A stretch of 64,000 nucleotides of DNA from an uncultured Gammaproteobacteria bacterium. Its GTDB lineage: Bacteria; Patescibacteriota; Patescibacteriia; S139-126. A program made the translations under genes and the position numbers. Positions within the stretch are counted from its first letter, which is position 1; each line of letters opens with the position of its first letter. Shown piece after piece: positions 7,251 through 30,763 of this stretch. Below the pieces are notes generated by a model that saw only the letters and a program-made list of their open reading frames with translations, did not search any database and was not told the origin of the DNA. The stretch covers positions 121,154 through 185,153 of the forward strand of contig CAZUKA010000002.1 in NCBI GenBank assembly GCA_964620905.1, given 5' to 3'.

Positions 7251-7261
7251 CTCAATTAATG

Positions 7262-10406: not shown

Positions 10407-10457
10407 AATTTGTTTTTATATAACTTGAGGGCTCTCCTTTGTGGAGAGCCCTGGCGA

Positions 10458-11174
10458 TTAATATTTTTTTATGTGATATGTCAGCCTTCCTAACATCTTG
10501 CTTTCACTCAGAGGGTAGGATTTCTTGAACCCTTCCTTCTCCGGTCGAAGCTCAAGATGGTCGCCCCTCACTTGGTAATAAGTCATCGCCAAACCATCCG
10601 GCGTGCTCATGATCACAATGTCACCATTTTTGGTTGGTGCATCGGCATCAAGGATTATGAAGTCCCCGGAAAGAATACCGGCATCGGGGAGTGCAAGATC
10701 GGATACACGGAGTCCAAATACTCGATGTCCCGGAATCACACCATCCTTGGGAAGTAAAACAAAATCACTCGTTCGACTCAGATGACCATCGAGATCGTCG
10801 ATGGGGATCGCTACGAGCACCGGCAATTTGAAATGACCATCAACAGAAAAAGAATTTTTCAATTCCTCAAGCCCTTGCTCAAGTCTGCTTGCGGCCTCGT
10901 GTACACGCTTCTCGCCGACACCCTTGATGTCGAATTTATAATTGCTCTCCATGCTGACCTGTCGGATTTTGCCTTCGGTCCAACGCTTCCTCACCTCCTC
11001 CTCGGGGAGTTGGTAGGCCTTAGCGAAAGTGACCAGCTGTTTCTGAGATGGAATGCGAGCTCCATTCTCCAGCTGGCTGATATAGCTCGACGAAAAACCG
11101 AGCCGCTCGGCCAGCTCTTTTATAGTCCACTTATTCGATTCTCTTTGTTTTTTTAGATATGAACCAAATGACAT
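10458..11174 (-). CDS. CI/LexA-like repressor (XRE HTH plus S24 peptidase-like C-terminal domain)
   Basis: N-terminal HTH (WTIKELAERLGFSSSYISQLENGARIPS), C-terminal beta-rich LexA/CI-type domain. Divergent from the Cro-like gene. Confidence 0.7.
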   Translation of the reverse strand: MSFGSYLKKQRESNKWTIKELAERLGFSSSYISQLENGARIPSQKQLVTFAKAYQLPEEEVRKRWTEGKIRQVSMESNYKFDIKGVGEKRVHEAASRLEQGLEELKNSFSVDGHFKLPVLVAIPIDDLDGHLSRTSDFVLLPKDGVIPGHRVFGLRVSDLALPDAGILSGDFIILDADAPTKNGDIVIMSTPDGLAMTYYQVRGDHLELRPEKEGFKKSYPLSESKMLGRLTYHIKKY

Positions 11175-11242
11175 ATTTGTTGATTTTGCTTAATCGGTTA
11201 ATGGCGACCTTGATTGCTTAACTATAGCAAATTAGTAAACAT

Positions 11243-11258
11243 TAAGCAACTTTGCTTA
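11243..11258. promoter_or_regulatory. operator palindrome TAAGCAA-CT-TTGCTTA
   Basis: Perfect 7-bp inverted repeat in the repressor/cro intergenic region. Confidence 0.55.
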
Positions 11259-11283
11259 TCCACACCCCAATATATTGACCTTG

Positions 11284-11299
11284 TAAGCAAAATTGCTTA
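11284..11299. promoter_or_regulatory. operator palindrome TAAGCAA-AA-TTGCTTA overlapping a putative cro promoter
   Basis: Second copy of the palindrome. It sits between ttgacc (11274-11279, -35-like) and taatat (11298-11303, -10-like). Related half-sites occur at 11186-11193 and 11214-11230. Confidence 0.5.
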
Positions 11300-11333
11300 A
11301 TATGACTGTAGGGGTCTAAAAGTTAAACAATTT

Positions 11334-11540
11334 ATGAACAAAACACCAGTGAATGTAAAACTCCGTGACCTTCGAATCAAGAAAGGGCTAACGCAATACC
11401 AACTAGCCCGAATTCTTGGTTTTAGGCACAACACTGCGATCAGCCGGTACGAGACAGGACGGAAGCGTCCGAATCTCGAAACAGCCCAGCGGATCGCTTT
11501 GGCTCTCGGAGTCAGAGTAGAGGAAGTTTTCTTGCCTTAG
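11334..11540 (+). CDS. Cro-like XRE-family HTH regulator
   Basis: 68 aa with HTH LTQYQLARILGFRHNTAISRYETGRKRP. Divergent to the repressor. Confidence 0.75.
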   Translation: MNKTPVNVKLRDLRIKKGLTQYQLARILGFRHNTAISRYETGRKRPNLETAQRIALALGVRVEEVFLP

Positions 11541-11593
11541 GCAAGGTGGGGTCAATAAAAGTGTGAGGTCACTCTTATGAACCAAACCACCGC

Positions 11594-11872
11594 ATGTCCA
11601 AACCAGACAAAGAAGAGGAAGCTCTTGTTGAGCTTACTCGCAATGCACTCGCCGAGGTACTCGGTCGAGAGCCGTCCCGACAAGAAGTTTGGAAAGTCCA
11701 TGCTGGCTTTAAGCGCATGGCGTTCATGCTATTGGATCACATGGATCACATTAAAAAACATGACAACGAAAATCCTGATCAAGAGACTCTTCCGGAGGAT
11801 GTGGAGCCGGATGACTCGGAAACCGCCAACAAGGAAGGAACTTCTTTGGAGACGGGAGAGTCTTCTGACTAA
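11594..11872 (+). CDS. acidic hypothetical protein
   Basis: 92-aa protein-like frame. The overlapping 11577..11972 frame is R/W-rich and less plausible. Confidence 0.35.
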   Translation: MSKPDKEEEALVELTRNALAEVLGREPSRQEVWKVHAGFKRMAFMLLDHMDHIKKHDNENPDQETLPEDVEPDDSETANKEGTSLETGESSD

Positions 11873-11965
11873 TTTCACCATCCGAGAGCTTGAAAATCCA
11901 ACTATGCGACGAGACTTCTGCCGAGCGATGGACAACATCGATCGAGCCCTACCCAAATCCAAGGA

Positions 11966-12595
11966 ATGGTAGACGGCGTCTTACTCTCCCCTCAATGGCG
12001 CCAGACGGTGATGGGAGGAATAAGGCGCGGTCTGTGGTCGATCACGCCTTTATTATTCGTTGCCATGTCCGATGAAAAAATAAAAGTTAGAGATTTAAGA
12101 AATGGCGATTGGTATTGGATCAACAAAGTACTCCTTGATGAGTACGGCGAGAAACTCAAGCCAATCGGCATCGCAATTTATAACTGCCTGGCGGCACATG
12201 CTAATCAGGAGGGTTTTTGTTTTCCCTCACACAAGCACATTGCCAAAAAAATAGGAGCCAGCATCTCGAGCGTGCAAAGAGGCATTCGGGAACTTATAAA
12301 ACTGAATCTCGTCCGCAAGGGCCGACAACGCTACCACAACCTGTACTACCTGTTGAAACTAGATAGGTCATACAGACCGACCTCAAACAAGCTCGGTCAG
12401 TCAGACCAGTACATCGGTCATGCAGACCGGTCAGATCAGTCAGCCGGAACTACTAACAAGAATAAAGAAAAAGATTTAAATAAAAAGAATTACGCTCGTG
12501 ATCAAAAAACTGTGGATAACTTGGAGGAAATGAAATCGAAGCTCGTTGAAAAGATGTCGATGGGTGCAAAAAAGACGGCAATGGATGACACCTGA
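11966..12595 (+). CDS. winged-HTH DNA-binding protein (possible replication initiator or DnaD-like organiser)
   Basis: FPSHKHIAKKIGASISSVQRGIRELIKLNLV is typical of phage replication-initiator HTH domains. The likely start is the internal Met near 12068. Confidence 0.45.
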   Translation: MVDGVLLSPQWRQTVMGGIRRGLWSITPLLFVAMSDEKIKVRDLRNGDWYWINKVLLDEYGEKLKPIGIAIYNCLAAHANQEGFCFPSHKHIAKKIGASISSVQRGIRELIKLNLVRKGRQRYHNLYYLLKLDRSYRPTSNKLGQSDQYIGHADRSDQSAGTTNKNKEKDLNKKNYARDQKTVDNLEEMKSKLVEKMSMGAKKTAMDDT

Positions 12596-12720
12596 TTTGT
12601 CCGTTAGCCGACCGGGAGGTAGTCGACCCCGAACCGGAAACGTTTATTAATTAATTCCATGATCAAAGGTTTCTGAAGCTCCGGAATCAATACCAAGCGC
12701 CAGCGACCCCAGCGAATAAT

Positions 12721-13011
12721 ATGGAACAAGAACCATTAAATATCGGCAATTGCCCTCATTGCACAAACATCGTCTTCAAGAACGGCGCATTTAATTCCAA
12801 TGCTTCATTCACGATGCGTTGTCCCAGCTGTCAGAAACTTCTTGAGATAGAAATAAAAACAAGGATTGAGATCACTATAAAACCTGCTGAAAGATACATC
12901 TCAGAGAAAAAACCAAAGTTCGGAAAATTATCAATTGCTTTTCTACTGCCGATTCCAGCTACCCATTATGCAGTGTGTGCTTGCGTAATGTGTGTAAATT
13001 GTCTTTTTTGA
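12721..13011 (+). CDS. zinc-ribbon protein
   Basis: CPHC...CPSCQ pair. Confidence 0.35.
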   Translation: MEQEPLNIGNCPHCTNIVFKNGAFNSNASFTMRCPSCQKLLEIEIKTRIEITIKPAERYISEKKPKFGKLSIAFLLPIPATHYAVCACVMCVNCLF

Positions 13012-13070
13012 GAGGACAGTTCGTTGAAAGTAAAAAGGAGCTCAACGCCCCTTTTTGTATTTTGCTTTGG

Positions 13071-14246
13071 TTATCGCAGTAGACCTGCTAGTTTATTTTT
13101 TGCGCTTACAAACGAATCTTTTTCAGATTCAGGAATAGTCCCTCCTCGGGGGAAATTCGTAGTTTGAGGGTTTATGGGATTACCATCTTCAAACATGGCA
13201 TATTGCAGATGGGGGCCAGTTGAGATACCTGTCGACCCTACATAACCAATAACGTCTCCCTGAACTACATCCACACCATTTTTAATACCTTTGGCGATCT
13301 TTGAAAGATGGGCGTATTGCGTAAGATAACTGCCATGCTTCAACTCCACCGTAATACCGAGTCCACCTTTTGAACCTGCAGTGGTTACTTTTCCATCTGC
13401 AGTAGCAATGACTGGTGTACCCGAATCGGCGGCGTAGTCGATCGCGCGATGCGGAGTGACTTTTTTAGTTACTGGATTGGTACGCTGGTAGCTATAGCCT
13501 GAACTTATCCGAGCGTAATTAAGCGGCGATTTAAGAAACTGACGAGCAAGTGACTGTCCATCCGCGTCATAGAATTTATCGTTATAACGGAATGCTGTGT
13601 ATGTTGTGCCACTATTAGTAAATTTGGCGGCCAACACTTTACCAGCGCCAGCATCCTTGCCGTCCAATGATCGTTTTTCGTAGACAACAGAAAACGAATC
13701 GCCACCCCTAATATCAGTAGCGAAGTCGATATCGCTTGAAAAGATATCAGCGATCTCCATCGTGACCTTATCTGCAATACCAGCATTTTGAGCCGAGACA
13801 AAGAGTGAATCGGTTATAGTCCCATTTGCGGTTACGTTTTGTATTTGATACGGAATAGGTTTTGTAGTTGCTTTAAAAGCGTCATCCTCTTTTACCACAA
13901 TGACAACCGTCTCACTCGTAAGCGGATATTCCACTGAAGCAAACACCTCATTTATAAAGATCAGCTTAATAACCTTACCTGTTTGAATTCTTGTGAAGTC
14001 GAAGGCCTCCTTTGAGGAATTAAGGATAGCAAGAGCCTGATCATAAGGAATCTGAAAAGACCCTAAGATACTCGTAAAAGTGTCGCCGGACTGTATTTTG
14101 TACTCGGCGACCTTTTTCTGATCCGTGCCTATTGCCTGTTGCGCTTGGACTTCTTGCTCGGGCTCGTTATTTAAAATTTTTGAACTTACGAGGGGGACGG
14201 ACGCCATCAGGATACCCCCGATCACTAACGAAACTATTATGTTCAT
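13071..14246 (-). CDS. M23 family metallopeptidase (secreted)
   Basis: N-terminal TM or signal sequence. M23 motifs HRAIDY...D and GSTGISTGPHLQY (HxH). Confidence 0.88.
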   Translation of the reverse strand: MNIIVSLVIGGILMASVPLVSSKILNNEPEQEVQAQQAIGTDQKKVAEYKIQSGDTFTSILGSFQIPYDQALAILNSSKEAFDFTRIQTGKVIKLIFINEVFASVEYPLTSETVVIVVKEDDAFKATTKPIPYQIQNVTANGTITDSLFVSAQNAGIADKVTMEIADIFSSDIDFATDIRGGDSFSVVYEKRSLDGKDAGAGKVLAAKFTNSGTTYTAFRYNDKFYDADGQSLARQFLKSPLNYARISSGYSYQRTNPVTKKVTPHRAIDYAADSGTPVIATADGKVTTAGSKGGLGITVELKHGSYLTQYAHLSKIAKGIKNGVDVVQGDVIGYVGSTGISTGPHLQYAMFEDGNPINPQTTNFPRGGTIPESEKDSFVSAKNKLAGLLR

Positions 14247-14331
14247 AGGTCATTCATTTTAACAAAAATAGCTCTTCATTTCAACCTCATAAAGAGCCTT
14301 ATTTTTAGGCCTATAATGACGGAAAATAATC

Positions 14332-16236
14332 TCATCTAAACAGCCTCAGCCCATTCAGAATCACAAGGATTGCCACTCCGGTATCGGCGGCAATAGCAAT
14401 TCCAAGATGTGCCATTCCAAAAACCGCCAAAACCACGAAAACAAGTTTTGAACCGACTGCCAGAGCAATATTGAACTTCACTGTTCCGAGGGTTCTTTTG
14501 CCAAGGCGAATTACATCAGGGATCAACTCGATACGGTCGCTCATAAGCACCATGTCTGCTGTTTCAAGGGCGATGTCCGTTCCTTTTCCTCCCATTGCGA
14601 TTCCTACATCGGAAAGGGCGAGGGCCGGAGCGTCATTAACGCCGTCGCCGACCATAGCTACAACCCCATACTTGCTTTTTAACTCCTTTATTTTCTCGAC
14701 TTTTTCCTCAGGTAAGAGTCCTGCAAAAACATTTTGGATGCCGAGCAACTTTGCTATATACGATGCACTATGAACATTGTCTCCGGTAAGCATTGTCGGG
14801 ACTATATTATTTTCCGAAAGCATCTTTACTGTCTTCGCCGAATCTTCTCGAACAGTATCTGATATGCCGATCATTCCCATGACCTTATCTTTCTCGCTTA
14901 CAAGGACTACTGTCTTTCCCTCCATCTCGAGCTTTTCGACTTGCTTTGATAGTTCACCGATAGACACATTATGAGCATCCATCATCTTGAGATTGCCGAC
15001 ACAGTGTTCAAGATCATTGCAGACTTTGCATATAGCCTTTCCTCCTTTGCCGGGAATGTTCTGGTACGACTCCATTTGGTGTGGAGTAATTCCTTTTTTC
15101 TTTGCGTATTCGATGATCGCCTCTGCAAGCGGATGTGTTGAGAATGACTCCATACCGGCGACATCCTCAAGCAGTTCTTTTTCGGTAAACCCATCAAAGA
15201 CGACGACATCGGTAACTACCGGCTTACCCAGCGTCAGCGTTCCGGTTTTATCGAATGCGATTGCTTTTACTTTGCCAAGAAGCTCAAGATATTTACCTCC
15301 CTTGATAAGAATGCCTTTCTTCGATGCTCCACCGAGAGCGGCGGTGACAGTGACTGGGGTAGCAATAACAAGAGCGCATGGACAGGCGATTACCAAAAGC
15401 GTGATCGCACGTTCAAGCCAAACGTAGAAACTACCGTCAAAGAAAAGCACTGGTACTCCTACGATGAAAAGTGCCGCGATTGCTATGCTGGGCGTATAGT
15501 ATTTGGCAAAGCTTTCGACAAACTCCTCCGACTGAGTCTTTGACTTTTGAGCACCGGATACCAGCTGTACGATTTTTGAAATAGTTGAATCCTTGCTTGC
15601 TTTCGTGACTTTGATCTCAAGATATCCATTGACGTTGATTGTTCCGGCATAAACCGCATCTCCAACGATTTTGTCTTTTGGGAGGGACTCACCAGTGATA
15701 GATGCCTCGTTAATAGCACTCGTACCTATGACGATAACACCATCGAGAGGGATGAGATCACCTGGCTTTACCACCACGATCGAATTCAAAGCTACTGCAT
15801 CAATATGCACAGTAGAACCGTCTTTGAGTGTTGCTTGTTTTGGATTATTGCTTATTAATTCCTCGAGGGCTTTGCGAGAACGTTTTTTGCCGAAGCTTTC
15901 AAACGCCTCTGCAAGAGAAAAGAAAAATACGACCGCTGACGCCTCGCCAAGCTGTCCGAGGTAGAGAGCGCCAATGGAGGCGACCACGACCAAAAACTCA
16001 ATATTGAGAAACTTCTTTTTCGTGAGACCCTCGAATGCTTCTTGCACGACGAAGATGCCCCCCACGATGATAGCCGTAAGAAAAAGTATGTTTGTTATAT
16101 TTTCTGCGATTCCTGCGTAGGAGAGCAGAAAGCCGACAACTGTACCGACACCAGAAATAATGGTCGCAATTGTACGCCAGTTTATCGACTTCTTTTCTTC
16201 CACGATCTCTTCTGTTTTACAGCATTGTGATGACAT
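14332..16236 (-). CDS. P1B-type heavy-metal translocating ATPase (Zn/Cd/Pb-type features)
   Basis: CPC in TM6, DKTGTLT, MLTGD, GDGVNDAP. TM7 Lys (GSK) and TM8 Asp (AADTG), with no MxxSS, favour a ZntA/CadA-like specificity. No N-terminal HMA domain, only an N-terminal Cys-Cys. Confidence 0.88.
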   Translation of the reverse strand: MSSQCCKTEEIVEEKKSINWRTIATIISGVGTVVGFLLSYAGIAENITNILFLTAIIVGGIFVVQEAFEGLTKKKFLNIEFLVVVASIGALYLGQLGEASAVVFFFSLAEAFESFGKKRSRKALEELISNNPKQATLKDGSTVHIDAVALNSIVVVKPGDLIPLDGVIVIGTSAINEASITGESLPKDKIVGDAVYAGTINVNGYLEIKVTKASKDSTISKIVQLVSGAQKSKTQSEEFVESFAKYYTPSIAIAALFIVGVPVLFFDGSFYVWLERAITLLVIACPCALVIATPVTVTAALGGASKKGILIKGGKYLELLGKVKAIAFDKTGTLTLGKPVVTDVVVFDGFTEKELLEDVAGMESFSTHPLAEAIIEYAKKKGITPHQMESYQNIPGKGGKAICKVCNDLEHCVGNLKMMDAHNVSIGELSKQVEKLEMEGKTVVLVSEKDKVMGMIGISDTVREDSAKTVKMLSENNIVPTMLTGDNVHSASYIAKLLGIQNVFAGLLPEEKVEKIKELKSKYGVVAMVGDGVNDAPALALSDVGIAMGGKGTDIALETADMVLMSDRIELIPDVIRLGKRTLGTVKFNIALAVGSKLVFVVLAVFGMAHLGIAIAADTGVAILVILNGLRLFR

Positions 16237-16240
16237 ACGT

Positions 16241-16426
16241 TTATTTGTTTTTCCAAGACTTCTTTAAGTCTTTCCAAAATCTCTTGTGAATTTCTATAGT
16301 GTCAGCGAGATGTTTTTCGGCCAAATGCTTCACATCGCCACCAGCTTCTCCTATTATTTCTTGGTGGATTCTAATTTCTTCTTGAGCGTGATCCTTTAAT
16401 GCTTGTATTGCTTTTTTGAGGTTCAT
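16241..16426 (-). CDS. small hypothetical protein
   Basis: 61-aa ORF directly downstream of the ATPase gene. Confidence 0.3.
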   Translation of the reverse strand: MNLKKAIQALKDHAQEEIRIHQEIIGEAGGDVKHLAEKHLADTIEIHKRFWKDLKKSWKNK

Positions 16427-16441
16427 ATGTTTTTTGTTTTA

Positions 16442-16663
16442 TTAATTAGTAATGAGTGTGGTAGTTGCCGGTGATTCTTGCACCGCTTTCTTAGTACTAT
16501 TCCTGTCGTTCCGAGTGGCATATGCATAACCGAGGAGCAAAATAAGCAGTACCACCGTGATGGCAACTTTTTTCGGCTCTACCTTGTCAGAGTGGTTATG
16601 CATATACTTTAATAATTGACGTAGTATTTGATCTTCGCGCTGGCCGTTAGATCGGAAACCCAT
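16442..16663 (-). CDS. small membrane protein, hypothetical
   Basis: 73 aa with one TM. Its start overlaps the end of the upstream gene. Confidence 0.3.
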   Translation of the reverse strand: MGFRSNGQREDQILRQLLKYMHNHSDKVEPKKVAITVVLLILLLGYAYATRNDRNSTKKAVQESPATTTLITN

Positions 16664-17271
16664 TTCTGCGCTTCTTGTTGGAACTTCTGTCCCTTAAGTT
16701 GTTCACCGACCTGCTTCCTGAAATCCTCCATCTTCACGTCTTTGGGAGGAGTTGCCTTTGAATCTTTGATGTAGGTATCTATCTCTGCCTCAGTTACCGC
16801 CACCTTGTCAGCAAGCAATTTTTCCAGTTTCTTCTGGATGGTTATTTGCTCTCGAAGTTTTTCCTCTGTCATACCTTGCTGAGCAAGTGCCGTTTCAAAG
16901 GTCCCGCCTTGTGCAGTGACTTGAGTCTTTATCTTATCAATTTCCGCGTCAATTTCCTCTTTGGTCGCAGTCACTTTTTGCTTGTTCAATTCAGTCTCAA
17001 TAAGCTTCTTATCGATGATCGCTTCAAGCGCTTGTTTGCCTCCTTGTTTTTCCAACTCCTTAATGACTGATAGACGGCTAATCGGACTGCCGTTTACCGT
17101 TGCGGCCACAAAGATTCCTTTGGCAAAGAACAGAGCAACAATGATAAGAATTACTGCGACTCCGATCGCAATAACGAGCGGTTTGGGCTTCTTAAATTTC
17201 AAGTTTACATACCCCGATTTGTGTTCTTGCGGGAAGTTCTGTGTTTCTAATTTATTTATGTCCTGTTCCAT
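16609..17271 (-). CDS. SurA N-terminal-domain-like periplasmic chaperone, membrane-anchored
   Basis: TM anchor followed by AATVNGSPISRLSVIKELEKQGGKQALEAIIDKKLI, typical of SurA_N/PpiD-like chaperone domains. Confidence 0.55.
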   Translation of the reverse strand: MEQDINKLETQNFPQEHKSGYVNLKFKKPKPLVIAIGVAVILIIVALFFAKGIFVAATVNGSPISRLSVIKELEKQGGKQALEAIIDKKLIETELNKQKVTATKEEIDAEIDKIKTQVTAQGGTFETALAQQGMTEEKLREQITIQKKLEKLLADKVAVTEAEIDTYIKDSKATPPKDVKMEDFRKQVGEQLKGQKFQQEAQKWVSDLTASAKIKYYVNY

Positions 17272-17282
17272 ATTTTTATATC

Positions 17283-18032
17283 TTAATTATTAATTTTAAG
17301 AGCATCGTCTAACATTTTTTTGAATTCCTCATATCCTCTTGGATTCTCAATCTTTTTGCCGTTGAGGAAGAAGGTTGGGGTACCTTGAATGCCTAATTTT
17401 GTTCCAGTATTTTTATCGCGTTCAATACGATTTTTAACCTCTTGCGAATCTACATCTTGTTTAAATTTAGCAAGGTCGAGACCAAGCTGTTTTGCATATC
17501 CTTCAAAAACCTCAGGGGTAGCGATTTGCTTTTCTCCCCAATCTCTCTGGTTTTCAAAGACAATATCGTGCATCTCCCAGTATTTTCCTTGTTTGCCGGC
17601 GGCTTCAACGGCAGATGCTGATGTCATGCTGTTTTTGTGTCCGGGGAGCGGAAAGTATCTTACAACAAATTTCACCCTATCTTTATATTCTTCAGACAAG
17701 CGTTTTACCACAGGATAGTACGCGCCACATGCTTCGCATTCGAAATCAAGATATTCAACAAGCGTGACTGTCCCTTCTTTATTCCCCTTAACCCAATCAT
17801 CCGATGCAACCGTGAGAAGTTCACTAGTTGGAACAGTCGGTCGAGTCGCTCCATACCAGAAAAGTCCGCCAATTGCTCCGGCAATGACGAGTATTATCGC
17901 GAGCCTCTTTGTCCATTGCTTAACTTTATTTGAGCGTTGATGTAGCTGTTCTTCTCTGGCTTTTTCTTGTCGCCTTATCTCTTTTCGCTCTTTTTTGGTG
18001 AGCGGTTTATTATTTTGTTCATTCAATTCCAT
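17283..18032 (-). CDS. DsbA-like thiol:disulfide oxidoreductase (membrane-anchored)
   Basis: TM anchor and thioredoxin fold with a CEAC active site (LDFECEACGAYYP). Confidence 0.75.
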   Translation of the reverse strand: MELNEQNNKPLTKKERKEIRRQEKAREEQLHQRSNKVKQWTKRLAIILVIAGAIGGLFWYGATRPTVPTSELLTVASDDWVKGNKEGTVTLVEYLDFECEACGAYYPVVKRLSEEYKDRVKFVVRYFPLPGHKNSMTSASAVEAAGKQGKYWEMHDIVFENQRDWGEKQIATPEVFEGYAKQLGLDLAKFKQDVDSQEVKNRIERDKNTGTKLGIQGTPTFFLNGKKIENPRGYEEFKKMLDDALKINN

Positions 18033-18055
18033 GATGGTATATCAATTAATGTTAA

Positions 18056-19132
18056 TTACTTAACGAGCTTTTCCGGTCCCACCGCCCGATCATATCTTCT
18101 GCCATCAAACATAATTGTGGGTATTTTGATCGTTTTTATTCTGTTCTCTACAATCTCTTTTTGACTAGCTAATCTTGTTTGTATTTCGCCTGAATTAACA
18201 GCTTGCCGTATCTTGTTGCGGTCATCTTCTGAGTACCCGATATCAGTGAGCCATGAAAGGATTTTATCTTCGGCCTCCTTTGCGGTATACATCGTGTTGA
18301 ATTTTATCTGATAGTCCACATTGTCTGTATCTTTGCTGGTGAACATCCTTTCCAAAATCTGCCAATCGGCTGGTGTTTTTGCCGAAGGTAATGGATAGAG
18401 CTTCACCGCCTCCAGATATGAGGCAATCATCTTAGAATGCGGAAAGCGGTAACCGTTGGACTGTTTGTTGTCCGGTATTGGGTATACCAGATAGGTTAGG
18501 TTGTAGCGGTCGGCAAAATCAGTCTCCTTAATATTACCAAACAACTTGGCGCAGAATTTACAGCTTGGATCGATTATCTCAAGAGCGACAGATTTACTAG
18601 AATCATATGGTTTGTAGTAGGTGTTGGATTCGGAAATAAATTCGTTCGGGTTCCACTCTTTAAATCGGTTCGGGATCATTGTGATCGTCTCGCCCAAGGT
18701 AAGCACTCCGTCTTTAGCCCACATGAGCACTTGTCCTTCTTTAACTGACACCCAGAATCCTGGTTTTCCAGAGTTTATTCCACAACCCCCACCACCCAAT
18801 GAACAGGACTCTGGATTATTTGGGTTACAAGTGTCATAGACGAACAAATTGAGACCACTATTAAGCACCACTAAAAGACTCCACATGCTTAGAATCACAA
18901 AAACCGAAGCCAAGACCCCAATCCACCGATCAAGAAATCTAGCTAAGCGGGGTTTAGTAACGATAAATTTGCCCAAAAGTTTGGCCTTGGCTTCTTCTTG
19001 GAAATTAATATCGCACGGTCTGAAGGTCATTTTTCTGAGTACGCACTTCCATGCCTTTTTTGCCAAGGATCGGTAACTGGCCGAAAAAATACCCAAGACC
19101 GCGAAAATGATAAATGCTGCTATGCAAAACAT
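18056..19132 (-). CDS. membrane protein with thioredoxin-like CxxC domain (disulfide oxidoreductase)
   Basis: Two N-terminal TM helices, paired loop cysteines, and a C-terminal soluble domain with IDPSCKFCAKLF (CxxC). Confidence 0.5.
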   Translation of the reverse strand: MFCIAAFIIFAVLGIFSASYRSLAKKAWKCVLRKMTFRPCDINFQEEAKAKLLGKFIVTKPRLARFLDRWIGVLASVFVILSMWSLLVVLNSGLNLFVYDTCNPNNPESCSLGGGGCGINSGKPGFWVSVKEGQVLMWAKDGVLTLGETITMIPNRFKEWNPNEFISESNTYYKPYDSSKSVALEIIDPSCKFCAKLFGNIKETDFADRYNLTYLVYPIPDNKQSNGYRFPHSKMIASYLEAVKLYPLPSAKTPADWQILERMFTSKDTDNVDYQIKFNTMYTAKEAEDKILSWLTDIGYSEDDRNKIRQAVNSGEIQTRLASQKEIVENRIKTIKIPTIMFDGRRYDRAVGPEKLVK

Positions 19133-19136
19133 ATTT

Positions 19137-20348
19137 TTATAAGTTAGTGATAATCGTTTTAAGTGTTTTCACAAAGAACTCGACTTGTTCTTTGGTATTG
19201 TTAAGGCCCAACGAAACTCTCACCAAAGGCGGATATTTTTTCAGATTTTTCAAGTAATAGTGACAGCAAAAATAACCGCTTCGCACCATGATGTTCTGTG
19301 CGGAGAGAAAGATTGCTAGACGATGAGCATCAATCTTGTCGAAATAGAAGCTCGTGATAGGACTAGGAGAACTATTAATAAGCTTCAGCGTTGGAATTTG
19401 AGAAAGCTCATTAAAAAGAAACTGCGCAAGCTTTTCTTGGTGGACGGGTGCTGACACTCCTTCCTTCTTAAAACTTTTGAGCCAATCCAAGGAGGCGCCA
19501 AGACCAACAATGCCAGCGAAATTTTGTAGACCAATTTCTAACCTACTTCCTAAGTCATCCGAATCGGATATCAGCCGATATTTTTCCGCTTCCACATCTT
19601 CTACCATACCTCCGCCAATAAATCCGATGTCCAGTGCGGCAAGAAGAGATTTCTTGATAATGATTACTCCTAAGCTGGGGCCATACATTTTATGTCCGGA
19701 AAAGAACAATGCGTCAAAATCACTTTCACGAATGATCTTTTGGTCATGGCTTATCCCTTGAGCGGCATCAACAAGTACTATCCCGCCTGTTTTGTGAACA
19801 TCATCAGTGATTTCCTTTAAGTTGATCAACTCGCGTCCATCAATATTGGACATACTATTTAGAACTACGATTGCGCCGGAAATATCATCTTTGTTGTACA
19901 TTAACGATCCGTTTGCTGACCGCTCTAGGATAGTGCGCGGAATGCTCAGTCTTTTGGCGGCAGTCATCGTCGGCAAAAACACCGAATTGTGCTCAATGTC
20001 CGAGGTTATAATTTTATTGAACTTCGGAGGCAACTGGCCGAGTACCAAATTTATGCCGTAAGTAGTGTTCAGCGTAAATGCCACCGCATATTCGGAAGCT
20101 GGCTTACCTACGAACGATAGTACTTTCTTTCTTGTCTCCTTTATTTTTTCATCCAGCTTTATACCCCAATCGTATTTCACCCGTCCTCCGCATGAATTGT
20201 ACTCGTGGTAATACTCCGCCATAGCATCAATAACTTGCTGTGGACGCAGTGTTTGGCATGCCGAATCCAGATATAGGACATCTTTGTTCAGATAAGAGAA
20301 ATCTGGATCATCATTTTTTGTTTTTTTGTTGATGTTTAAGAAATTCAT
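19137..20348 (-). CDS. class-V aminotransferase / cysteine desulfurase family protein
   Basis: PLP-lysine motif SGHKMYGPSLGV (SufS/NifS-like). Confidence 0.75.
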   Translation of the reverse strand: MNFLNINKKTKNDDPDFSYLNKDVLYLDSACQTLRPQQVIDAMAEYYHEYNSCGGRVKYDWGIKLDEKIKETRKKVLSFVGKPASEYAVAFTLNTTYGINLVLGQLPPKFNKIITSDIEHNSVFLPTMTAAKRLSIPRTILERSANGSLMYNKDDISGAIVVLNSMSNIDGRELINLKEITDDVHKTGGIVLVDAAQGISHDQKIIRESDFDALFFSGHKMYGPSLGVIIIKKSLLAALDIGFIGGGMVEDVEAEKYRLISDSDDLGSRLEIGLQNFAGIVGLGASLDWLKSFKKEGVSAPVHQEKLAQFLFNELSQIPTLKLINSSPSPITSFYFDKIDAHRLAIFLSAQNIMVRSGYFCCHYYLKNLKKYPPLVRVSLGLNNTKEQVEFFVKTLKTIITNL

Positions 20349-20350
20349 AA

Positions 20351-21094
20351 TTATTTTTCCTGCAAAGCTGTCTCAATGAGTTGCTTTATAGAAGCATATG
20401 GCTGTGCGCCAGAGAGTGGATATTTTTTGCCGTTTTTGGCAACAACAATACTCCACGGTGTGCCATTGCCACCAGTTGCTTGAGCATTTTGCACCTCGTC
20501 TTCTATGTGTTTATCGTATTTAGTACTTGCAAGACATGTGCTAAATTTCGTCTTATCTAAACCGACATACTCTGCGATCTTTGGTAGCTCTGCAAGGTCG
20601 AGTCCGTTGTTTGCAGGAGTGATTTCATAGAGGCGATCAGCATATTCCCAGAATTTGTCGTTTCCTCCCTGGTCGTTTGCACACTCAAGCGCAACAGCTT
20701 CTTTTCGCGCTTTAGAGTGAAGCTGATCAAGTGGAAAATGTCTGTACACCCAAGCTACTTTTCCATCCTTGCCGTAGGTATCGATTACTTCTTTCATTGT
20801 TGTATGAAATCTCTTACAGAACGGGCATTCGGTATCCGAATACTCGACTATTTTTATCGGTGCATCTGGATTGCCTCGAATGTGGTCTTTTGATGTGACG
20901 GGCGTCATTTGTTCAAGATCACCTGTCTGCTGTGCCACCTGCTGTTGTTGTGGCTGATTTGCGGTACCTGCTGTAGGTGCCTTGCCACCGCTGTAGATTA
21001 CTGCGCCGGCAATGAGTACTCCAGCAATAACTACAGCTATTGGCATAGAAAGCGAGAACGTATTTTTTTGTGTTTGTTGATTATTTTCTTCCAT
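20351..21094 (-). CDS. DsbA-like thiol:disulfide oxidoreductase
   Basis: TM or signal sequence plus CPFC active site (YSDTECPFCKRFH) and DsbA-like insertion. Confidence 0.8.
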   Translation of the reverse strand: MEENNQQTQKNTFSLSMPIAVVIAGVLIAGAVIYSGGKAPTAGTANQPQQQQVAQQTGDLEQMTPVTSKDHIRGNPDAPIKIVEYSDTECPFCKRFHTTMKEVIDTYGKDGKVAWVYRHFPLDQLHSKARKEAVALECANDQGGNDKFWEYADRLYEITPANNGLDLAELPKIAEYVGLDKTKFSTCLASTKYDKHIEDEVQNAQATGGNGTPWSIVVAKNGKKYPLSGAQPYASIKQLIETALQEK

Positions 21095-21159
21095 ATCAAT
21101 ATAAAGTTAAAATTAATAAAGCCAGCACAAAAAAGTGCTGAACTGAGAGAAAGCGGACG

Positions 21160-21576
21160 TTAGAAAATCTTCGGATTAAGAATTCCACTAGAAAAAGCTT
21201 CTTGGAGGGGATCAAATATCTGATACTTTCTTAAGTAAAAAGGGTTTATGTATATCTCTGGCCAAGGTTGATCGTGTATAGAAAATTTCTTCCAAGCTCC
21301 AATTGCCAATAAGGCAAGCAGTGCGAGAAGTGCAGAAAGAAAAGATAGAGCATCTTTTGCCGGAAGCGTGGTAAACATGCTCTGCCATTCCTGAATATGC
21401 TCCATCGGGTTCATTTTGCAGATAGACATCGAGTGACCGCTGAACGGACAGTTTCCTGTTGCAGTACTCATGTCCATTGCTCCAAGACCGAAACACGATA
21501 TGCCAAAAAGAAGGACAGTAAGAACTGCAAGTATGATGGGAAACTTTATTATGTTTTTAGTCGATTTGAAAAACAT
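21160..21576 (-). CDS. membrane protein, hypothetical (Cys/His/Met-rich loop)
   Basis: 138 aa with two TM helices and a NCPFSGHSMSICKMNPMEH loop that may bind metal. Confidence 0.4.
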   Translation of the reverse strand: MFFKSTKNIIKFPIILAVLTVLLFGISCFGLGAMDMSTATGNCPFSGHSMSICKMNPMEHIQEWQSMFTTLPAKDALSFLSALLALLALLAIGAWKKFSIHDQPWPEIYINPFYLRKYQIFDPLQEAFSSGILNPKIF

Positions 21577-21593
21577 ATATCAATTATACAAAA

Positions 21594-24383
21594 TTAAAAT
21601 CCATACTGATCCATTCGTAATTTGAAGGCATCACGGCCACCCTCAGTGACGAGGATTATTTCTTCCTTAATTTCCTTTTTATCGATTGCACCCATAGCTT
21701 TGATTGATCCACGGGTCTGGTCGCCAGCTTTTATGTAATCGCAACAGACTACAAGTTCGGCATCGCCATTAACGACAAAGTTTGCACTGTGGCTTGCAAA
21801 AATAAGCTGTCGTTTACTCTTAGCTCTCCAGACCTGCTGGACGATATCTTTGAACATCTTACTATCGATATCGTCTTCTGGCTGGTCAATGATTAGTGGC
21901 GCACCTGACTGATTCAAAAGGACGGTGAGCAAAGCCGTTGCTTGTTGGCCAGCTGACGCATCTGAAAATCCGATATAGTCTTTCTTTGCCTTGTTGGTGC
22001 AATAAGAAAACTTTGGATTAAATTCCAGCTCTGTGACAGAGAGGTCGAGCCACCGTGCAGAGTCAAAGCTAGTCGCAATTCTTGTGCGTTCAGTATCGAT
22101 AAAATTGCACTTATTAAGAATCGGAGTATCCGGCATCTCATCGGGTCCCTCCGTAGAGTGCAGTGCGAGCTTCTCAAGTTCTGAAAGAATGCCGTTCCAC
22201 TCAACAAGTGGATTGCTGGCTTTCAACAGAGATTGACAGATTTTCTCAAGCTTCGCTTCGTTGATATTCATACCGGAAAAAGCCGTCTTGAGTTTTAGAG
22301 TGAGGGCGTTGGTGTCCAGACTGTTTGTGATTTCCGCCTTAATGAGATCACCGGATAGTGCGGTGAACTGAGTACATTGCTTTTCAAGAGCCTTGATCTT
22401 TTGAGTATGCAAGCCGTCCCACTTAGTGCGGAGTTTTTTGTACGCAGTTTCCGGATCGCCAAGAGCCGCAAGCGCGTTGCGTTTTTCCGTCTGCTGTTTT
22501 TTGAGTGTGGCGATACGCTTCTCAAGAGTTTGTATCTGATCGAGCTGTTGCTGGTTAACCTTAGCTTTTACTTTTGCGGCCTCGTATTTCTTATCAAATG
22601 TCACCTTAAGTTTTTCCCACTCCTTGATCTCGTCGTTGATAGTCTTAAGTGATGCTGGCTTAAAAAGATTTGAGAGTGCGGTAACGCCAGCTTCTATTTC
22701 TGTAAATTTAGAAGCGTATTTGGTTTGAATTCGGCCGATCAGAGCTTTATTCTCCAGCTCGACTTCCTCCTCTTCGACTTCCTCGCCCTCTAATGCCTCT
22801 ACAAGATTCCCGACATGTTCCTGTGTGGTCTCAAGCTCGTTTTTGAGAGCTTCAATGATCGCTTCCTCGTTATCGTATTTTGCCTTCTGATCGATAGTTT
22901 TCTGATCCTCCTTAGACAATCCCTTGAGACTCTTGCGAAGTTTTCCCAGCTGTTCGGTCGATGAAGCTATCTCTACATTATTTTTATTGACCTCCGCCTC
23001 GATTTCATTCATCCGGATTAAATCACCATAAGCGGATCGCATCTTTGCTTCCGTGTCTCGCACATCCGAACGAATTTGATCGAGTTCCTGTTTGATTGGA
23101 AGTTCGACAAAACGCTTCAGCTCATCGATGCGTACACCTACGCTACTTAGCTGTTTCTGACTGTACGCTTGGATCGGAAGCAAATTTCGTACTTGCTGTT
23201 CTGTGGCCGGAGAGAATTCGCCATCGCCAATTTTAAGCAAAATTTCCTGCTTCTTTGAGTTACGTTTTACGATATGGGGTACATCGTTGAGAAGGAATTC
23301 GACATGCACCTCACCGTCAAATTTCTGGAGAGTATTGTCGATTAAATTCTTGCGCTTGGTCTGCACGATGTCCATGTCCTCGCTCTCTACCGGCTGATCA
23401 CAAAGACCCCATCGGAGATATTCGAGGATTGTAGACTTGCCTGTACCACGACCACCAATGATGGCGTTGTACTGCTGGTTTAAATCAAAGCCAACCTGCC
23501 CAAGAAACTTGGAGTTTGTGACGCTGATCGATGTGATCCAAAGATTCGGGAGTTCGGGTTCAACGAGAGAGACTCTGGATTCTCTGGCCAAGCATGCTTG
23601 ACGGAGTGCCTCTGCAGTCGGTTCTGACCATTTAACGTATGTGCTAGGTAGGCCAAGATCGGAATGATCACGTTTGCGGTTATCGGAAGTTTGAAAGACC
23701 GCAATCGGTTTGTACCCATTGTTTTGCTGGCGTCCCTCGAGGATATTTTTGTAGCCATCGCTCGACTTTGAATACTCACCATCAACATAACCACCCACGC
23801 AACGCATCTCTTTGTAGTGCTTTGCAAATCCGTCACGGAAAAGAGTTTTATGTCCTGCAGTGGTGACGTTCGGAAGTATGATGTATTTTCCTTTAAGCCA
23901 AAAGTGCTGGTTTAGTCGATCCTCGAGATCGTTCAATCCGGTGATCGATGTCGGCGATACAGACTCAACACTTGCGAGTTTGCTATTTGTCGGATCGGTG
24001 GCCGCAATAGTGAGTGTGGTCAGAATGTCCCCAAATTTTGTCTCGTCGAAATCAGCATCAAGCAAAAGTATCGCTTGGCACGGTGGAGATGAAAGTGTGA
24101 GCTCGATACCAGGAAAAACAACGATCTGATCCTGTGGTTCAATGGATTCACCGATAAGATTAACTTCCGATGCCGCCGCCGCTTTCACATACGGAAACAT
24201 GCAAAAGTCATGGTGATCAGTTATCGCAATCGCATTGAGACCTTTTGTTCGGCATGCCTGAATAAGCTCTTCTGCATAAGCTTTGCGTTCTGCTGGTGTA
24301 GCGGCTTCCGCACCGTCCCAATTTGCATCTCGGGGAGTGTGAACTTGGAAGTCGCATTTGTAGAAGTGTGCACCTTTGTCCAT
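21594..24383 (-). CDS. PHP-phosphoesterase fused to SMC/Rad50-like ABC ATPase with long coiled-coil (candidate defence protein)
   Basis: N-terminal PHP motifs (QVHTPRD, ITDHHD). Walker A IIGGRGTGKST, about 350 aa of coiled-coil, a signature-like SGDLI, Walker B LIIDQPEDDID, H-loop FASHS. Confidence 0.8.
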   Translation of the reverse strand: MDKGAHFYKCDFQVHTPRDANWDGAEAATPAERKAYAEELIQACRTKGLNAIAITDHHDFCMFPYVKAAAASEVNLIGESIEPQDQIVVFPGIELTLSSPPCQAILLLDADFDETKFGDILTTLTIAATDPTNSKLASVESVSPTSITGLNDLEDRLNQHFWLKGKYIILPNVTTAGHKTLFRDGFAKHYKEMRCVGGYVDGEYSKSSDGYKNILEGRQQNNGYKPIAVFQTSDNRKRDHSDLGLPSTYVKWSEPTAEALRQACLARESRVSLVEPELPNLWITSISVTNSKFLGQVGFDLNQQYNAIIGGRGTGKSTILEYLRWGLCDQPVESEDMDIVQTKRKNLIDNTLQKFDGEVHVEFLLNDVPHIVKRNSKKQEILLKIGDGEFSPATEQQVRNLLPIQAYSQKQLSSVGVRIDELKRFVELPIKQELDQIRSDVRDTEAKMRSAYGDLIRMNEIEAEVNKNNVEIASSTEQLGKLRKSLKGLSKEDQKTIDQKAKYDNEEAIIEALKNELETTQEHVGNLVEALEGEEVEEEEVELENKALIGRIQTKYASKFTEIEAGVTALSNLFKPASLKTINDEIKEWEKLKVTFDKKYEAAKVKAKVNQQQLDQIQTLEKRIATLKKQQTEKRNALAALGDPETAYKKLRTKWDGLHTQKIKALEKQCTQFTALSGDLIKAEITNSLDTNALTLKLKTAFSGMNINEAKLEKICQSLLKASNPLVEWNGILSELEKLALHSTEGPDEMPDTPILNKCNFIDTERTRIATSFDSARWLDLSVTELEFNPKFSYCTNKAKKDYIGFSDASAGQQATALLTVLLNQSGAPLIIDQPEDDIDSKMFKDIVQQVWRAKSKRQLIFASHSANFVVNGDAELVVCCDYIKAGDQTRGSIKAMGAIDKKEIKEEIILVTEGGRDAFKLRMDQYGF

Positions 24384-24386
24384 AAA

Positions 24387-24890
24387 TTAAAATTTCGTAA
24401 TATGCTCCTGATTGCTTGAATAGCCTGCAGTGCCGTCGTTAGTGGCCATGCTGAAGTACGACTTCTTCGCAACGATAATAAAGTCTTCAAAGAATGGTTT
24501 GAACGACAAAACCTGCGAGTCTGCTTGCAGTGCTCGCATGAGTTTCTTGTCGTCCTCATTCGGAGTCGGATCAGTAGAGCCGGGATGATTGATCAAGACC
24601 ATAAACTTCTTGGCAAGAAATAGAGAAAAGTAATGCCAGAGCATCTGCGTGTCGAGATTCTTGGGGGAGGAACCAAGAAAGACCTGATGCCCGAGGAACA
24701 GGTTTTTGTCATCGAGATAGATTCCAATCACTTTGGAAACTGCCTCGTCTTCCAAGTCTTTGAGGAATTTATAGAGGTCTTCCGGATCACGAACCTGACC
24801 CTGAATCGGAGGCTCTACATCGGTCTCAACGATCTCATATTTCTTGAGATATCGTTTGCCGTCATCATTTTTGTGTTCATCATTTTTCAT
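24387..24890 (-). CDS. RadC-like JAB/MPN domain protein
   Basis: LINHPGSTDPTPNEDD matches the RadC HNHPSG...PS..D signature, with the first His replaced by Ile. There are 3 nt between its start and the stop of the upstream gene. Confidence 0.65.
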   Translation of the reverse strand: MKNDEHKNDDGKRYLKKYEIVETDVEPPIQGQVRDPEDLYKFLKDLEDEAVSKVIGIYLDDKNLFLGHQVFLGSSPKNLDTQMLWHYFSLFLAKKFMVLINHPGSTDPTPNEDDKKLMRALQADSQVLSFKPFFEDFIIVAKKSYFSMATNDGTAGYSSNQEHITKF

Positions 24891-24915
24891 AGGCGATTTC
24901 CAAAGTTTGGTTAAT

Positions 24916-25992: not shown

Positions 25993-26129
25993 ATACGTTA
26001 TGTATGTGATTATATGGGATTATATGATTAAATGCAAGTAATAGGCCTGTGGGCGACCAACAACCCACCAAAACAAGGGATTTTCGCCATTAAACACGAC
26101 TTTGTGGTATAATATCCACAATAATCCTT

Positions 26130-30761: not shown

Positions 30762-30763
30762 AT

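Follow-up and report, generated by a model that had tools for sequence, protein, structure and literature searches.

The DNA considered here is a 64,000-nucleotide stretch (the window) of contig CAZUKA010000002.1, from an uncultured bacterium of the Candidate Phyla Radiation (CPR). Exact-sequence matching assigns the host to this group (Patescibacteria), with near-identical proteins in metagenome-assembled genomes of Nomurabacteria, Parcubacteria, and Minisyncoccia. Its host DNA, at ~35–37% GC, is broken at ~8.9–48.0 kb by an island of 42–53% GC. This island is a ~39-kb prophage integrated into a tRNA-Ser gene, recognised by its att repeats and the hallmark phage genes between both repeat copies. 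Within it, positions 13071–21576 hold a block of nine co-directional minus-strand genes and two small open reading frames (ORFs), with intergenic gaps of 2–85 nt. An earlier reading of the bare letters, referred to here as the original prediction, had described a phage-carried cargo for oxidative folding and metal efflux. The nine ORFs lie where it placed them, inside the prophage and next to defence genes (Ppl and SoFic, identified by PADLOC), and its domain assignments survive profile, residue, or fold tests. By its gene content, the block joins an envelope thiol-redox system, composed of two anchored DsbA-family proteins, a SufS-like cysteine desulfurase, and a membrane protein termed Mem358, to envelope and metal functions. 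On balance it is interpreted, with modest confidence, as a phage cargo operon with a transmembrane thiol/persulfide relay at its core, possibly for quinone-independent disulfide generation.

Mem358 (18056–19132, minus strand) is a 358-residue protein consisting of a two-helix membrane module and a DsbA-fold domain. All eight of its cysteines (C3, C30, C40, C102, C110, C117, and C191-x-x-C194) are invariant in 85 orthologues. The active site reads C191-K-F-C194 and is accompanied by a cis-Pro loop, K-I-P338-T, that is invariant in the same set. Hydrophobic helices span residues 2–19 and ~70–98, with the cysteines at the membrane faces and none within the helices. The loop of residues 20–69 averages 12.5 Lys+Arg (net +8.7) and the segment after the second helix has a net charge of −4.3. 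Because of the positive-inside rule applied to these segments, C30 and C40 are predicted to be cytoplasmic, and C3, C102, C110, C117, and the C-terminal domain to face outward. Structural comparison identifies the C-terminal domain as a DsbA fold, a thioredoxin fold with a helical insertion, and its best matches include ScsC of Caulobacter, Proteus, and Salmonella, and BcfH. The AlphaFold model has a mean predicted local distance difference test (pLDDT) score of 83, exceeding 90 in the C-terminal domain. The membrane module has no matching Pfam or NCBIfam family and no match to DsbB, VKOR, DsbD, or CcdA by sequence or fold.

The adjacent gene (19137–20348, minus strand) encodes a SufS/CsdA-type cysteine desulfurase of a distinct subfamily (Aminotran_5, 1.6e-69; Pfam and NCBIfam). 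The protein aligns end-to-end with the SufS enzymes of E. coli and B. subtilis in the PDB at ~1e-39. Across 81 + 44 orthologues, Lys220, which binds pyridoxal 5′-phosphate (PLP), His120, Arg356, and the catalytic Cys361 are invariant, as are two extra cysteines, Cys31 and Cys53. K220, H120, and C361 align with K226, H123, and C364 of E. coli SufS. C31 and C53 stand in two N-terminal segments where SufS has non-Cys residues, and in SufS these segments presumably lie near the active site. The enzyme scores under the curated cut-offs of both TIGR01979 sufS (226 vs. 475 bits) and TIGR03392 CsdA (179 vs. 494 bits), and represents a separate subfamily.

The SufS-like gene lies directly upstream of Mem358 in 84 of 87 Mem358 loci. 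Of the three loci without it, one is a 1.4-kb contig with no upstream room, and an ORF-based recount of 85 loci left two apparent exceptions to adjacency. The distance from the SufS-like stop to the Mem358 start is −1 to +8 nt in 72/80 pairs. Clustering of the neighbours of 80 loci revealed no third conserved partner (SufE/SufU, thioredoxin, or reductase), and no soluble sulfur acceptor of the SufE, SufU, or CsdE type is conserved beside the SufS-like gene at these loci. The pair is the conserved core of the block. The original prediction had listed the desulfurase and the membrane thioredoxin-like protein as separate items of a toolkit, a view that gives way to one strictly linked two-gene system. 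The two proteins probably act together in a cysteine-based relay.

A profile search of 1.84 billion representatives, in which full-length relatives were defined at E ≤ 1e-30, returned 64 full-length relatives of Mem358. Most of the 404 matches cover the N-terminal ~110 residues (the N-module) only, in proteins that are mostly ~300–316 residues long, with some of ~150 residues. In these short forms C3, C30, C40, C102, and C110/112 are invariant (87/87). The membrane module is followed in the same polypeptide by a DsbA/Thioredoxin_4 domain of the ordinary kind, which in most cases has a C-[Y/F]-x-C active site and a GTPT loop. At the short-form loci (80, metagenomic) a SufS-like gene with the C31/C53/C361 signature is found downstream, which is the reverse of the gene order at Mem358. 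Where at least 1.1 kb of downstream sequence is available (53 loci), the enzyme gene is directly adjacent in 29, often with a 4-nt overlap, lies within 0.9–2.7 kb in ~16 more, and is absent from 5. As this linkage outlasts a reversal of gene order, it argues strongly for functional coupling of the SufS-like enzyme with the membrane module.

Short-form members with an organism name come from Vogelbacteria and Liptonbacteria in the CPR and from Woesearchaeota and Nanoarchaeota among the DPANN archaea. Independent gene calls on DPANN contigs likewise give a DsbA-family gene and an Aminotran_5 gene with overlapping stop and start codons. In a Nanoarchaeota locus (L182, 7509–10227, GCA_023133595.1) the pair is followed by genes for a thioredoxin-reductase-like flavoprotein (Pyr_redox_2) and a 536-residue protein with two DsbA domains. 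This arrangement, seen in one lineage only, may point to the electron partner. Stand-alone N-modules of ~150 residues (P0355 and P0373) also occur, in Nanoarchaeota with a very Cys-rich C-terminal tail, so that fusion to a DsbA domain is not obligatory for the module. Monothiol (CxxT) DsbA variants were considered as a sign of a pure sulfur carrier and dropped, as the first Cys is missing from only ~2–4 of the 87 short forms, in part through alignment shifts.

The remaining genes of the block surround this pair. Two free DsbA-family proteins of 249 and 247 residues have N-terminal membrane anchors. The first (17283–18032, minus strand) has a CEAC motif and a GTPT cis-Pro loop (Thioredoxin_4, 4e-31; DSBA, 3e-17), while the second (20351–21094, minus strand) has a CPFC motif, a second Cys pair, and a GTPW loop (Thioredoxin_4, 3e-27; DSBA, 8e-16). 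From the anchors and the positive-inside rule, the DsbA-family domains of the block are predicted to be located outside the cytoplasm.

Metal handling is represented by a transmembrane (TM) P-type ATPase of the P1B-2 (Zn/Cd/Pb) type at 14332–16236 on the minus strand. It scores 489 bits against TIGR01512 (Cd family), for which the cut-off is 313.5 bits, and 582 bits against TIGR01525, likewise above its cut-off. Alignment to Shigella ZntA (4UMV; E=2e-114) shows that the CPC of TM helix 4, the equivalents of K693 and D714 (the Lys of TM helix 5 and the ADTG Asp of TM helix 6), and DKTGT are retained, so the Zn/Cd-type signatures claimed for this protein hold. A profile search found no HMA domain and the ZntA alignment begins at ZntA residue 153; the N-terminus bears a Cys-Cys pair. 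At the other end of the block, Mem138 (21160–21576, minus strand) is a putative metal-binding protein of 138 residues with two TM helices and no family match. Its outward-facing loop is invariant, C43-P-x3-H48-S-x3-C53-x2-N-P-x-E-H60...M67, and is complemented by a conserved C-terminal EAFSxGILNPK. None of its 155 homologues has a Pfam domain, and the few with an organism name are from the CPR.

A 220-residue protein (16609–17271, minus strand) with a predicted TM anchor carries a SurA-N-like chaperone domain (SurA_N_3, 1.9e-8). Pfam detects no peptidyl-prolyl isomerase (Rotamase) domain in it, and it is SurA-N-like only rather than a full SurA. The last gene of the block (13071–14246, minus strand) encodes a membrane-anchored protein of the M23/Csd3 type, similar to MepM and ShyC (Peptidase_M23, 2.3e-27, and Csd3_N2; Pfam and NCBIfam). 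It keeps H266-x3-D270 (HRAID), and HLQ (GPHLQY) replaces the canonical HxH, whose second His is a Zn ligand in LytM. HLQ is found in 5/6 block-linked M23 orthologues and the sixth ends before the motif. The call of an M23 peptidase thus stands for the family but not for the full set of canonical Zn ligands, of which one is absent, and the peptidase activity of this protein is therefore uncertain. The two small ORFs are a 61-residue soluble helical protein (16241–16426, minus strand), which has no match among family profiles and is conserved in 5 block loci at 54–78% identity, and a 73-residue ORF with one TM helix (16442–16663, minus strand). The reality of the latter is uncertain; it overlaps the 3′ end of the SurA-like gene, and a homologue search of the other block loci found none. 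None of the nine named ORFs is disrupted, and Mem358, the SufS-like enzyme, and Mem138 of the window keep every residue that does not vary within their families. The pump, Mem138, the SurA-N protein, and the M23-type protein are envelope-located by prediction, save for the cytoplasmic domains of the pump, and plausibly handle thiophilic-metal and envelope stress.

Beyond the window, more than 500 close homologues of Mem358 are found, all of 354–361 residues and none with a Pfam domain. By record title the carriers found in a scan of one genome per species are mostly CPR, from the Nomura-, Peri-/Peregrini-, Gracili-, Sacchari-, Doudna-, and Abawacabacteria. Some of the remaining titles read only 'bacterium' or, in probable error, Gammaproteobacteria or Bdellovibrionales, and a few metagenome-assembled genomes (MAGs) are labelled Acidobacteria. 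Large contigs that reach 1.27 Mb and bear acidobacterial labels (Bryobacteraceae or Terriglobia; L031, L046, L052, L055, and L060) also carry full-length pairs, reflecting either true transfer beyond the CPR or mis-binning. The full block is confined to a clade at least ~58% identical to the window Mem358. The pair is flanked by two DsbAs in 25 loci and accompanied by the P1B ATPase in 20, the SurA-like gene in 11, Mem138 in 9, and the M23 gene in 6.

The search in related prophages and in non-phage contexts that the original prediction had proposed finds the block in both. In one prophage (L015/L002) tail genes for a tape-measure protein and Dit (2e-21) are followed by the block, a tyrosine integrase, and the host genes alr and serS. 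In another (L011/L099) an endolysin gene precedes the whole block, from Mem138 to M23, and then a phrog_1 integrase. The block sits at the integrase-proximal end of both, and neither has structural genes in common with the window phage. The block has been captured independently by three unrelated phages. Most copies are nonetheless chromosomal. One (L016/L096) lies among RF, FtsEX, and CTP synthase genes with extra CDF, Band_7, and peptidyl-prolyl isomerase genes, and another (L008) is flanked at one end by CopA-like ATPase, DUF305, and HMA-DsbD_2 genes and at the opposite end by TsaE and Sua5. When 148 flanking ORFs without a label were tallied by Pfam family, P1B ATPases (14), cupredoxins, DUF305, HMA, CDF, and DsbD_2 predominated, and no phage family was among the top 25. 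The claim of a phage-carried block is therefore correct for this prophage and two others, but the usual home of the block is a chromosomal metal-homeostasis neighbourhood. Phage carriage is real and recurrent, yet it is the minority state.

Nucleotide identity between the window block and its nearest chromosomal copies is 85–86% from Mem138 to the SurA-like gene and only 65–75% in the ATPase and M23 genes, and the cassette itself is therefore mosaic. A 29.4-kb contig (L001, Logan SRR10807893) is 100% identical over its overlap with the block and ends at ~16530, at the junction of the SurA-like and ATPase genes. As this is the same place as the drop in identity, it suggests a recombination point that breaks assemblies. 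Serine recombinases 21–29% identical to the window integrase are encoded within a few kb at seven further loci (L012, L018, L019, L025, L039, L048, and L073), which hints at further mobile-element contexts near the pair or block.

The position of the block in the phage genome is defined by a sibling phage, IMGVR_UViG_3300025154_002045, whose terminase is 94% identical to that of the window. The window terminase belongs to a cluster of 90 members, and a look-up of its exact sequence gave no record. By blastn the two are collinear over 8858–12535 (84%), 21590–24390 (90%), 24423–26113 (87%), and 26598–40740 (88%). The sole large window-specific segment, 12535–21590, has no nucleotide counterpart in the sibling and forms a variable cargo slot. 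It has sharp breakpoints and contains the block along with a diverged copy of a 96-residue backbone ORF. In the sibling the slot is occupied by a tyrosine-recombinase-like gene, a 174-residue gene, and a PD-(D/E)xK nuclease gene, which are unrelated to the block. The sibling also has a 4.8-kb restriction-modification-type insert between Ppl and RadC (L088, 435–5372), which holds a pair of type II/PglX-like methyltransferase genes and a pair of unknown ones, and therefore a second variable hotspot adjoins the cargo slot.

The block lies within the att boundaries of the prophage (8871–8902 and 47985–48016), as had been claimed. It was also considered whether it is a separate island nested there by chance, which the original prediction had named as the finding that would count against it. 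Att or insertion sequence (IS) boundaries belonging to the block were looked for at its edges and none were found. The flanks share no direct repeat of 9 nt or longer. A 10-nt inverted stretch is all that matches between them, a length that shuffled sequences also give (7–13 nt). No recombinase or transposase is detected among the block genes by Pfam or NCBIfam. With no att or IS repeats of its own and no mobility gene, the nested island was rejected.

The composition of the block had been described as lower in GC than the structural genes, pointing to mosaic acquisition, and this is borne out by third-position GC (GC3) and codon usage intermediate between host and phage. GC is 43.2% in the block (36–46% per gene), 48.9% in structural genes, and 37.1% in host genes, and GC3 rises from 0.27 in host genes through 0.43 in the block and 0.49 in defence genes to 0.56 in structural genes. 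Codon usage of the block correlates about equally weakly with that of the host (r = 0.36) and of the structural genes (r = 0.34). Based on the att repeats, the sharp breakpoints against the sibling, the lack of block-specific repeats, and the intermediate GC3, the block is very probably a host-derived (CPR-bacterial) cargo operon in a phage moron slot. The original interpretation is thus partly supported, namely in its view of the block as cargo acquired in mosaic fashion. The block, defence genes, repressor, and recombinase all run leftward, opposite to the Cro/early and structural genes, an orientation as expected for cargo expressed in the lysogen. Terminator-like sites in 12400–26800 number 22 against 14.3 ± 4.0 in shuffled sequence, which is not clearly above expectation, and a hairpin at 21141–21122 between Mem138 and the second DsbA gene was given no weight.

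A mechanism for the relay can be proposed from this arrangement. It is established that SufS-type enzymes pass a persulfide to a partner cysteine, and that a persulfide and a dithiol react to give a disulfide and H2S. In the cytoplasm, the PLP enzyme would convert L-cysteine to alanine and leave a persulfide on Cys361, with Cys31 and Cys53 as a possible internal relay. Sulfane sulfur, or a resolved disulfide, would then reach Cys30/Cys40 on the basic cytoplasmic loop of Mem358. From there, redox or sulfur equivalents would cross the two-helix module to C3/C102 and C110/C117 and on to the CxxC of the fused DsbA domain. The layout of the outer cysteines, with a membrane-proximal pair, a loop pair, and the CxxC, would by analogy mirror the logic of DsbB and VKOR. 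The Mem358 DsbA domain could in turn re-oxidise the two anchored DsbAs, which would oxidise secreted proteins. In net terms, cysteine-derived S(0) would act as a two-electron acceptor (S(0) to H2S), replacing the quinone of DsbB and VKOR. The sulfide by-product and the ZntA-type pump may jointly lower thiophilic-metal stress, and in a lysogen the phage would supply or boost the redox and metal capacity of its host.

The direction assumed in this scheme, in which the relay supplies oxidant as a DsbB/VKOR substitute, is proposed tentatively. Doubtful in its full form is the wider claim that the pair is a quinone-independent disulfide machine replacing DsbB and VKOR in respiration-less CPR and DPANN organisms, with cysteine-derived sulfane sulfur as the terminal acceptor and with phages moving an elaborated version between CPR hosts. 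Several observations weigh against the overall explanation. The direction of flow cannot be read from sequence. The membrane module is modelled with only moderate confidence (pLDDT 55–80), and a two-helix protein without a mid-membrane Cys must bridge ~30 Å, which would take either oligomerisation or a sulfur species able to diffuse. A role in copper-stress repair agrees equally well with the surrounding metal genes and with the likeness to ScsC. The Mem358 family is accessory, not a general CPR solution, as its carriers amount to 157 species-level genomes in a collection of 185,579 species (one genome per species). Phage carriage is uncommon, with no Mem358 relative found in 2.9 million IMG/VR contigs by searches with the single protein and the profile. 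Promoter-like sites from a consensus scan of 12400–26800 number 18 against a shuffled expectation of 22.4, and expression in the lysogen is presumed from gene orientation only.

The likeness to ScsC raises the question of whether the system works in the opposite direction. Mem358 might be an equivalent of ScsB or DsbD fused to ScsC, keeping its own DsbA-fold domain and the two DsbAs reduced so that they repair copper/cadmium mis-oxidation of envelope Cys, or binding Cu(I), with the desulfurase as an auxiliary for iron-sulfur (Fe-S) repair or sulfide supply. Such a reductive or isomerase system would account for ScsC and BcfH among the top structural matches and for the Cu/Zn genes around the extended block (14 P1B ATPases, cupredoxins, DUF305, HMA, and DsbD_2). 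The C-[Y/F]-x-C active sites of the short forms and the presence of Cys on both membrane faces, as in electron-importing relays, also agree with it. However, the sole strictly conserved partner is a cysteine desulfurase, which is no source of reducing equivalents, and no thioredoxin or thioredoxin reductase is conserved beside the pair, one being present in a single Nanoarchaeota locus. Pair-only loci have no nearby metal genes, and Mem358 resembles DsbD, CcdA, or ScsB neither in sequence nor in fold. This explanation is considered unlikely. Alternatively, the desulfurase might mobilise sulfur that Mem358 carries outward as a persulfide, and sulfide would there precipitate or cap Zn, Cd, and Cu alongside the efflux pump, with disulfide chemistry being secondary. 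The SufS-type active site, the outward Cys/His/Met metal-type loop of Mem138, and linkage of the pair to a ZntA-type pump in 20/87 loci and to other metal genes would all be in keeping with sulfide delivery. Most loci, namely the pair-only and DPANN ones, nevertheless lack nearby metal genes, and every fusion of the N-module is to a DsbA fold that bears a CxxC and a cis-Pro loop, the hallmarks of protein thiol-disulfide exchange. Monothiol variants are rare (at most 4/87), and an outward sulfur carrier is judged improbable.

A dedicated desulfurase beside Mem358 could also supply sulfur for clusters ligated by the Cys residues of a Mem358 dimer, making it an Fe-S membrane protein that serves as a redox sensor or electron conduit. 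The invariant Cys sets on each face (two per monomer inside, four outside) would suit this arrangement, but no scaffold (SufU, SufB, or IscU) or iron-handling gene is conserved nearby and the outer Cys adjoin a DsbA domain. It is also implausible that a cluster would be assembled at the outward side of a membrane protein of the Sec type, and this explanation is very unlikely. A different kind of doubt concerns the benefit of the block, which might serve the lytic cycle through folding of virion or lysis proteins, or be carried along neutrally after an island became nested there by chance. Folding helpers are indeed encoded by phages, and the tyrosine recombinase in the slot of the sibling indicates that cassettes may insert there. 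The block, however, shares its direction of transcription with the repressor, integrase, and defence genes and runs counter to every lytic and structural gene. The structural proteins contain 0–1.5% Cys. A passenger origin is further countered by the absence of att/IS repeats and mobility genes in or around the block, by the intact state of the nine named ORFs with their family-invariant residues kept, and by capture of the same block independently in three phage types. A lytic or passenger role is thus a most improbable explanation.

Among the known systems closest to the pair are DsbA-DsbB and DsbA/VKOR, including the VKOR-thioredoxin fusions and MdbA-VKOR of Actinobacteria. In these, outer-face Cys pairs partner a DsbA or thioredoxin domain with a CxxC and a cis-Pro loop. 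As in VKOR-thioredoxin fusions, the membrane module and DsbA domain of Mem358 share one polypeptide, with free DsbAs encoded alongside. Mem358 differs in having two helices rather than a four-helix bundle, with no sequence or fold similarity to DsbB or VKOR and no recognisable quinone site, and in its extra invariant cytoplasmic Cys pair and obligate desulfurase linkage. The transmembrane reductant relays ScsABCD, a copper-stress system, and DsbD-DsbC are also comparable. DsbD, CcdA, and ScsB have 6–8 TM helices and intramembrane Cys and receive electrons from thioredoxin, whereas Mem358 has 2 TM helices, no intramembrane Cys, a desulfurase partner, and no DsbD_2 match. The enzyme side resembles SufS-SufE, SufS-SufU, and CsdA-CsdE, where a type II PLP desulfurase (Cys, Lys, and His conserved) stands beside a dedicated Cys-bearing partner. 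The partner here is an integral membrane DsbA fusion and not a soluble protein, and the enzyme has the extra C31 and C53. The block ATPase shares CPC, the TM5 Lys, the TM6 ADTG Asp, and DKTGT with ZntA and CadA (P1B-2). It lacks their typical, although not obligatory, N-terminal HMA domain and has only the Cys-Cys pair, and it scores 466 bits against a ZntA equivalog cut-off of 1240.

The block as a whole is comparable to phage morons and lysogenic-conversion cassettes in occupying a variable slot, following the orientation of the lysogeny genes, having an atypical composition, and being absent from a sibling. DsbA-family proteins borne on mobile elements are known (DsbP, SrgA, and BcfH; plasmid-borne). 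In contrast to known morons and plasmid-borne Dsb proteins, this is an 8.5-kb nine-gene operon in CPR phages that spans redox, chaperone, wall, and metal export functions. Its components come from known superfamilies (DsbA, SufS-type desulfurases, P1B-2 ATPases, and M23), and cargo of the moron type is a known phenomenon. Three features seem to be new: the two-helix five-cysteine module, which belongs to no curated family; the obligate pairing of this module, in both CPR and DPANN, with a dedicated subfamily of desulfurases; and the repeated capture of the operon by CPR phages. Searches of the full-text literature yielded no description of the pair, of CPR disulfide machinery, or of phage-borne Dsb/metal cassettes, with many subscription papers outside their coverage. 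They likewise yielded no characterised prophage for this lineage and, to our knowledge, few prophages of CPR bacteria have been characterised.

Hundreds of CPR and DPANN lineages have kept the pair, annotated only as 'hypothetical' or 'DsbA family'. As far as we know, CPR and DPANN organisms have no respiratory chains or quinone synthesis, and the pair therefore offers a way to study how they re-oxidise DsbA. Should the flow prove to be reductive, or should the pair make sulfide that detoxifies metals, it would still represent a new type of transmembrane Cys relay coupled to a desulfurase. The 8.5-kb redox and metal-export operon, as exchangeable phage cargo, is also a candidate for lysogenic conversion in a lineage not yet cultured.

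Possible substrates of an oxidative system are encoded by the host within the window. The Cys-rich proteins and the atypical DsbA that the original prediction had pointed out were confirmed. The ORF at 676–2241 has 26 Cys in 521 residues and a T4SS_pilin domain (PF18895, 1.6e-9); it probably encodes a protein of the cell surface or of pilus type, one that would depend on oxidative folding for its many Cys. The ORF at 57198–58793 has 20 Cys in 531 residues, and the protein encoded at 3–701 is Thioredoxin_4-like (DsbA-like) without a CxxC. The tie of the block to these host Cys-rich proteins is one of association only.

The rest of the prophage follows a temperate organisation. The integration target is tRNA-Ser (GCT) at 8796–8889 on the plus strand (ARAGORN). 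The attL core over its 3′ end (8871–8902) is a 32-nt direct repeat, 30/32 identical to the attR core at 47985–48016, the second copy of direct repeat D7. A large serine recombinase, the phage integrase, is encoded at 8676–10406 on the minus strand (Resolvase, Recombinase, and Zn_ribbon_recom domains). Its ORF runs through the attL core into the antisense strand of tRNA-Ser, and integration therefore alters the C-terminal tail of the enzyme, which is 576 residues long in the integrated form and 504–524 residues in the reconstructed excised (attP) form. A CI-type repressor with helix-turn-helix (HTH) and S24 peptidase domains (10458–11174, minus strand; Pfam) and a Cro-like HTH protein (11334–11540, plus strand; Pfam HTH_3) come next. 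An HTH_36 early protein (11966–12595, plus strand; Pfam) marks the left edge of the slot, the breakpoint at ~12535 from blastn against the sibling lying at its 3′ end. The 96-residue backbone ORF with a Cys motif (12721–13011, plus strand), for which the sibling has a 96-residue homologue, is convergent with the end of the block.

On the other side of the block are the minus-strand genes for a Ppl-type defence protein with PHP and AAA/SMC-like ATPase domains (21594–24383; PADLOC Ppl 3.8e-37, Pfam), a RadC-like JAB domain protein (24387–24890; Pfam), and a SoFic-type Fic defence protein with a winged HTH domain (24916–25992; PADLOC SoFic 4.6e-45). The plus strand then encodes the hallmark terminase large subunit, portal, and major head protein (29112–35221) and an amidase endolysin (46849–47415). 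These and the tail-fibre proteins were assigned with PHROGs and lie between the two att copies. A 433-residue tail-region gene (38075–39376) has imperfect repeats (families D1 and D2) whose spacing is a multiple of 42 nt, which implies a repeated unit of ~14 residues. In the host DNA, a 40-nt direct repeat that is 83% identical (7219–7258 and 7310–7349) overlaps tRNA-Arg (7176–7250) and may be the scar of an older integration at a second tRNA. The compositional gap between this temperate phage and its host is unusually large, with the prophage at ~48% GC and the CPR host at ~35–37%. Terminases at least 90% identical to that of the window phage are found in MAGs labelled Nomurabacteria, Magasanikbacteria, and Minisyncoccia.

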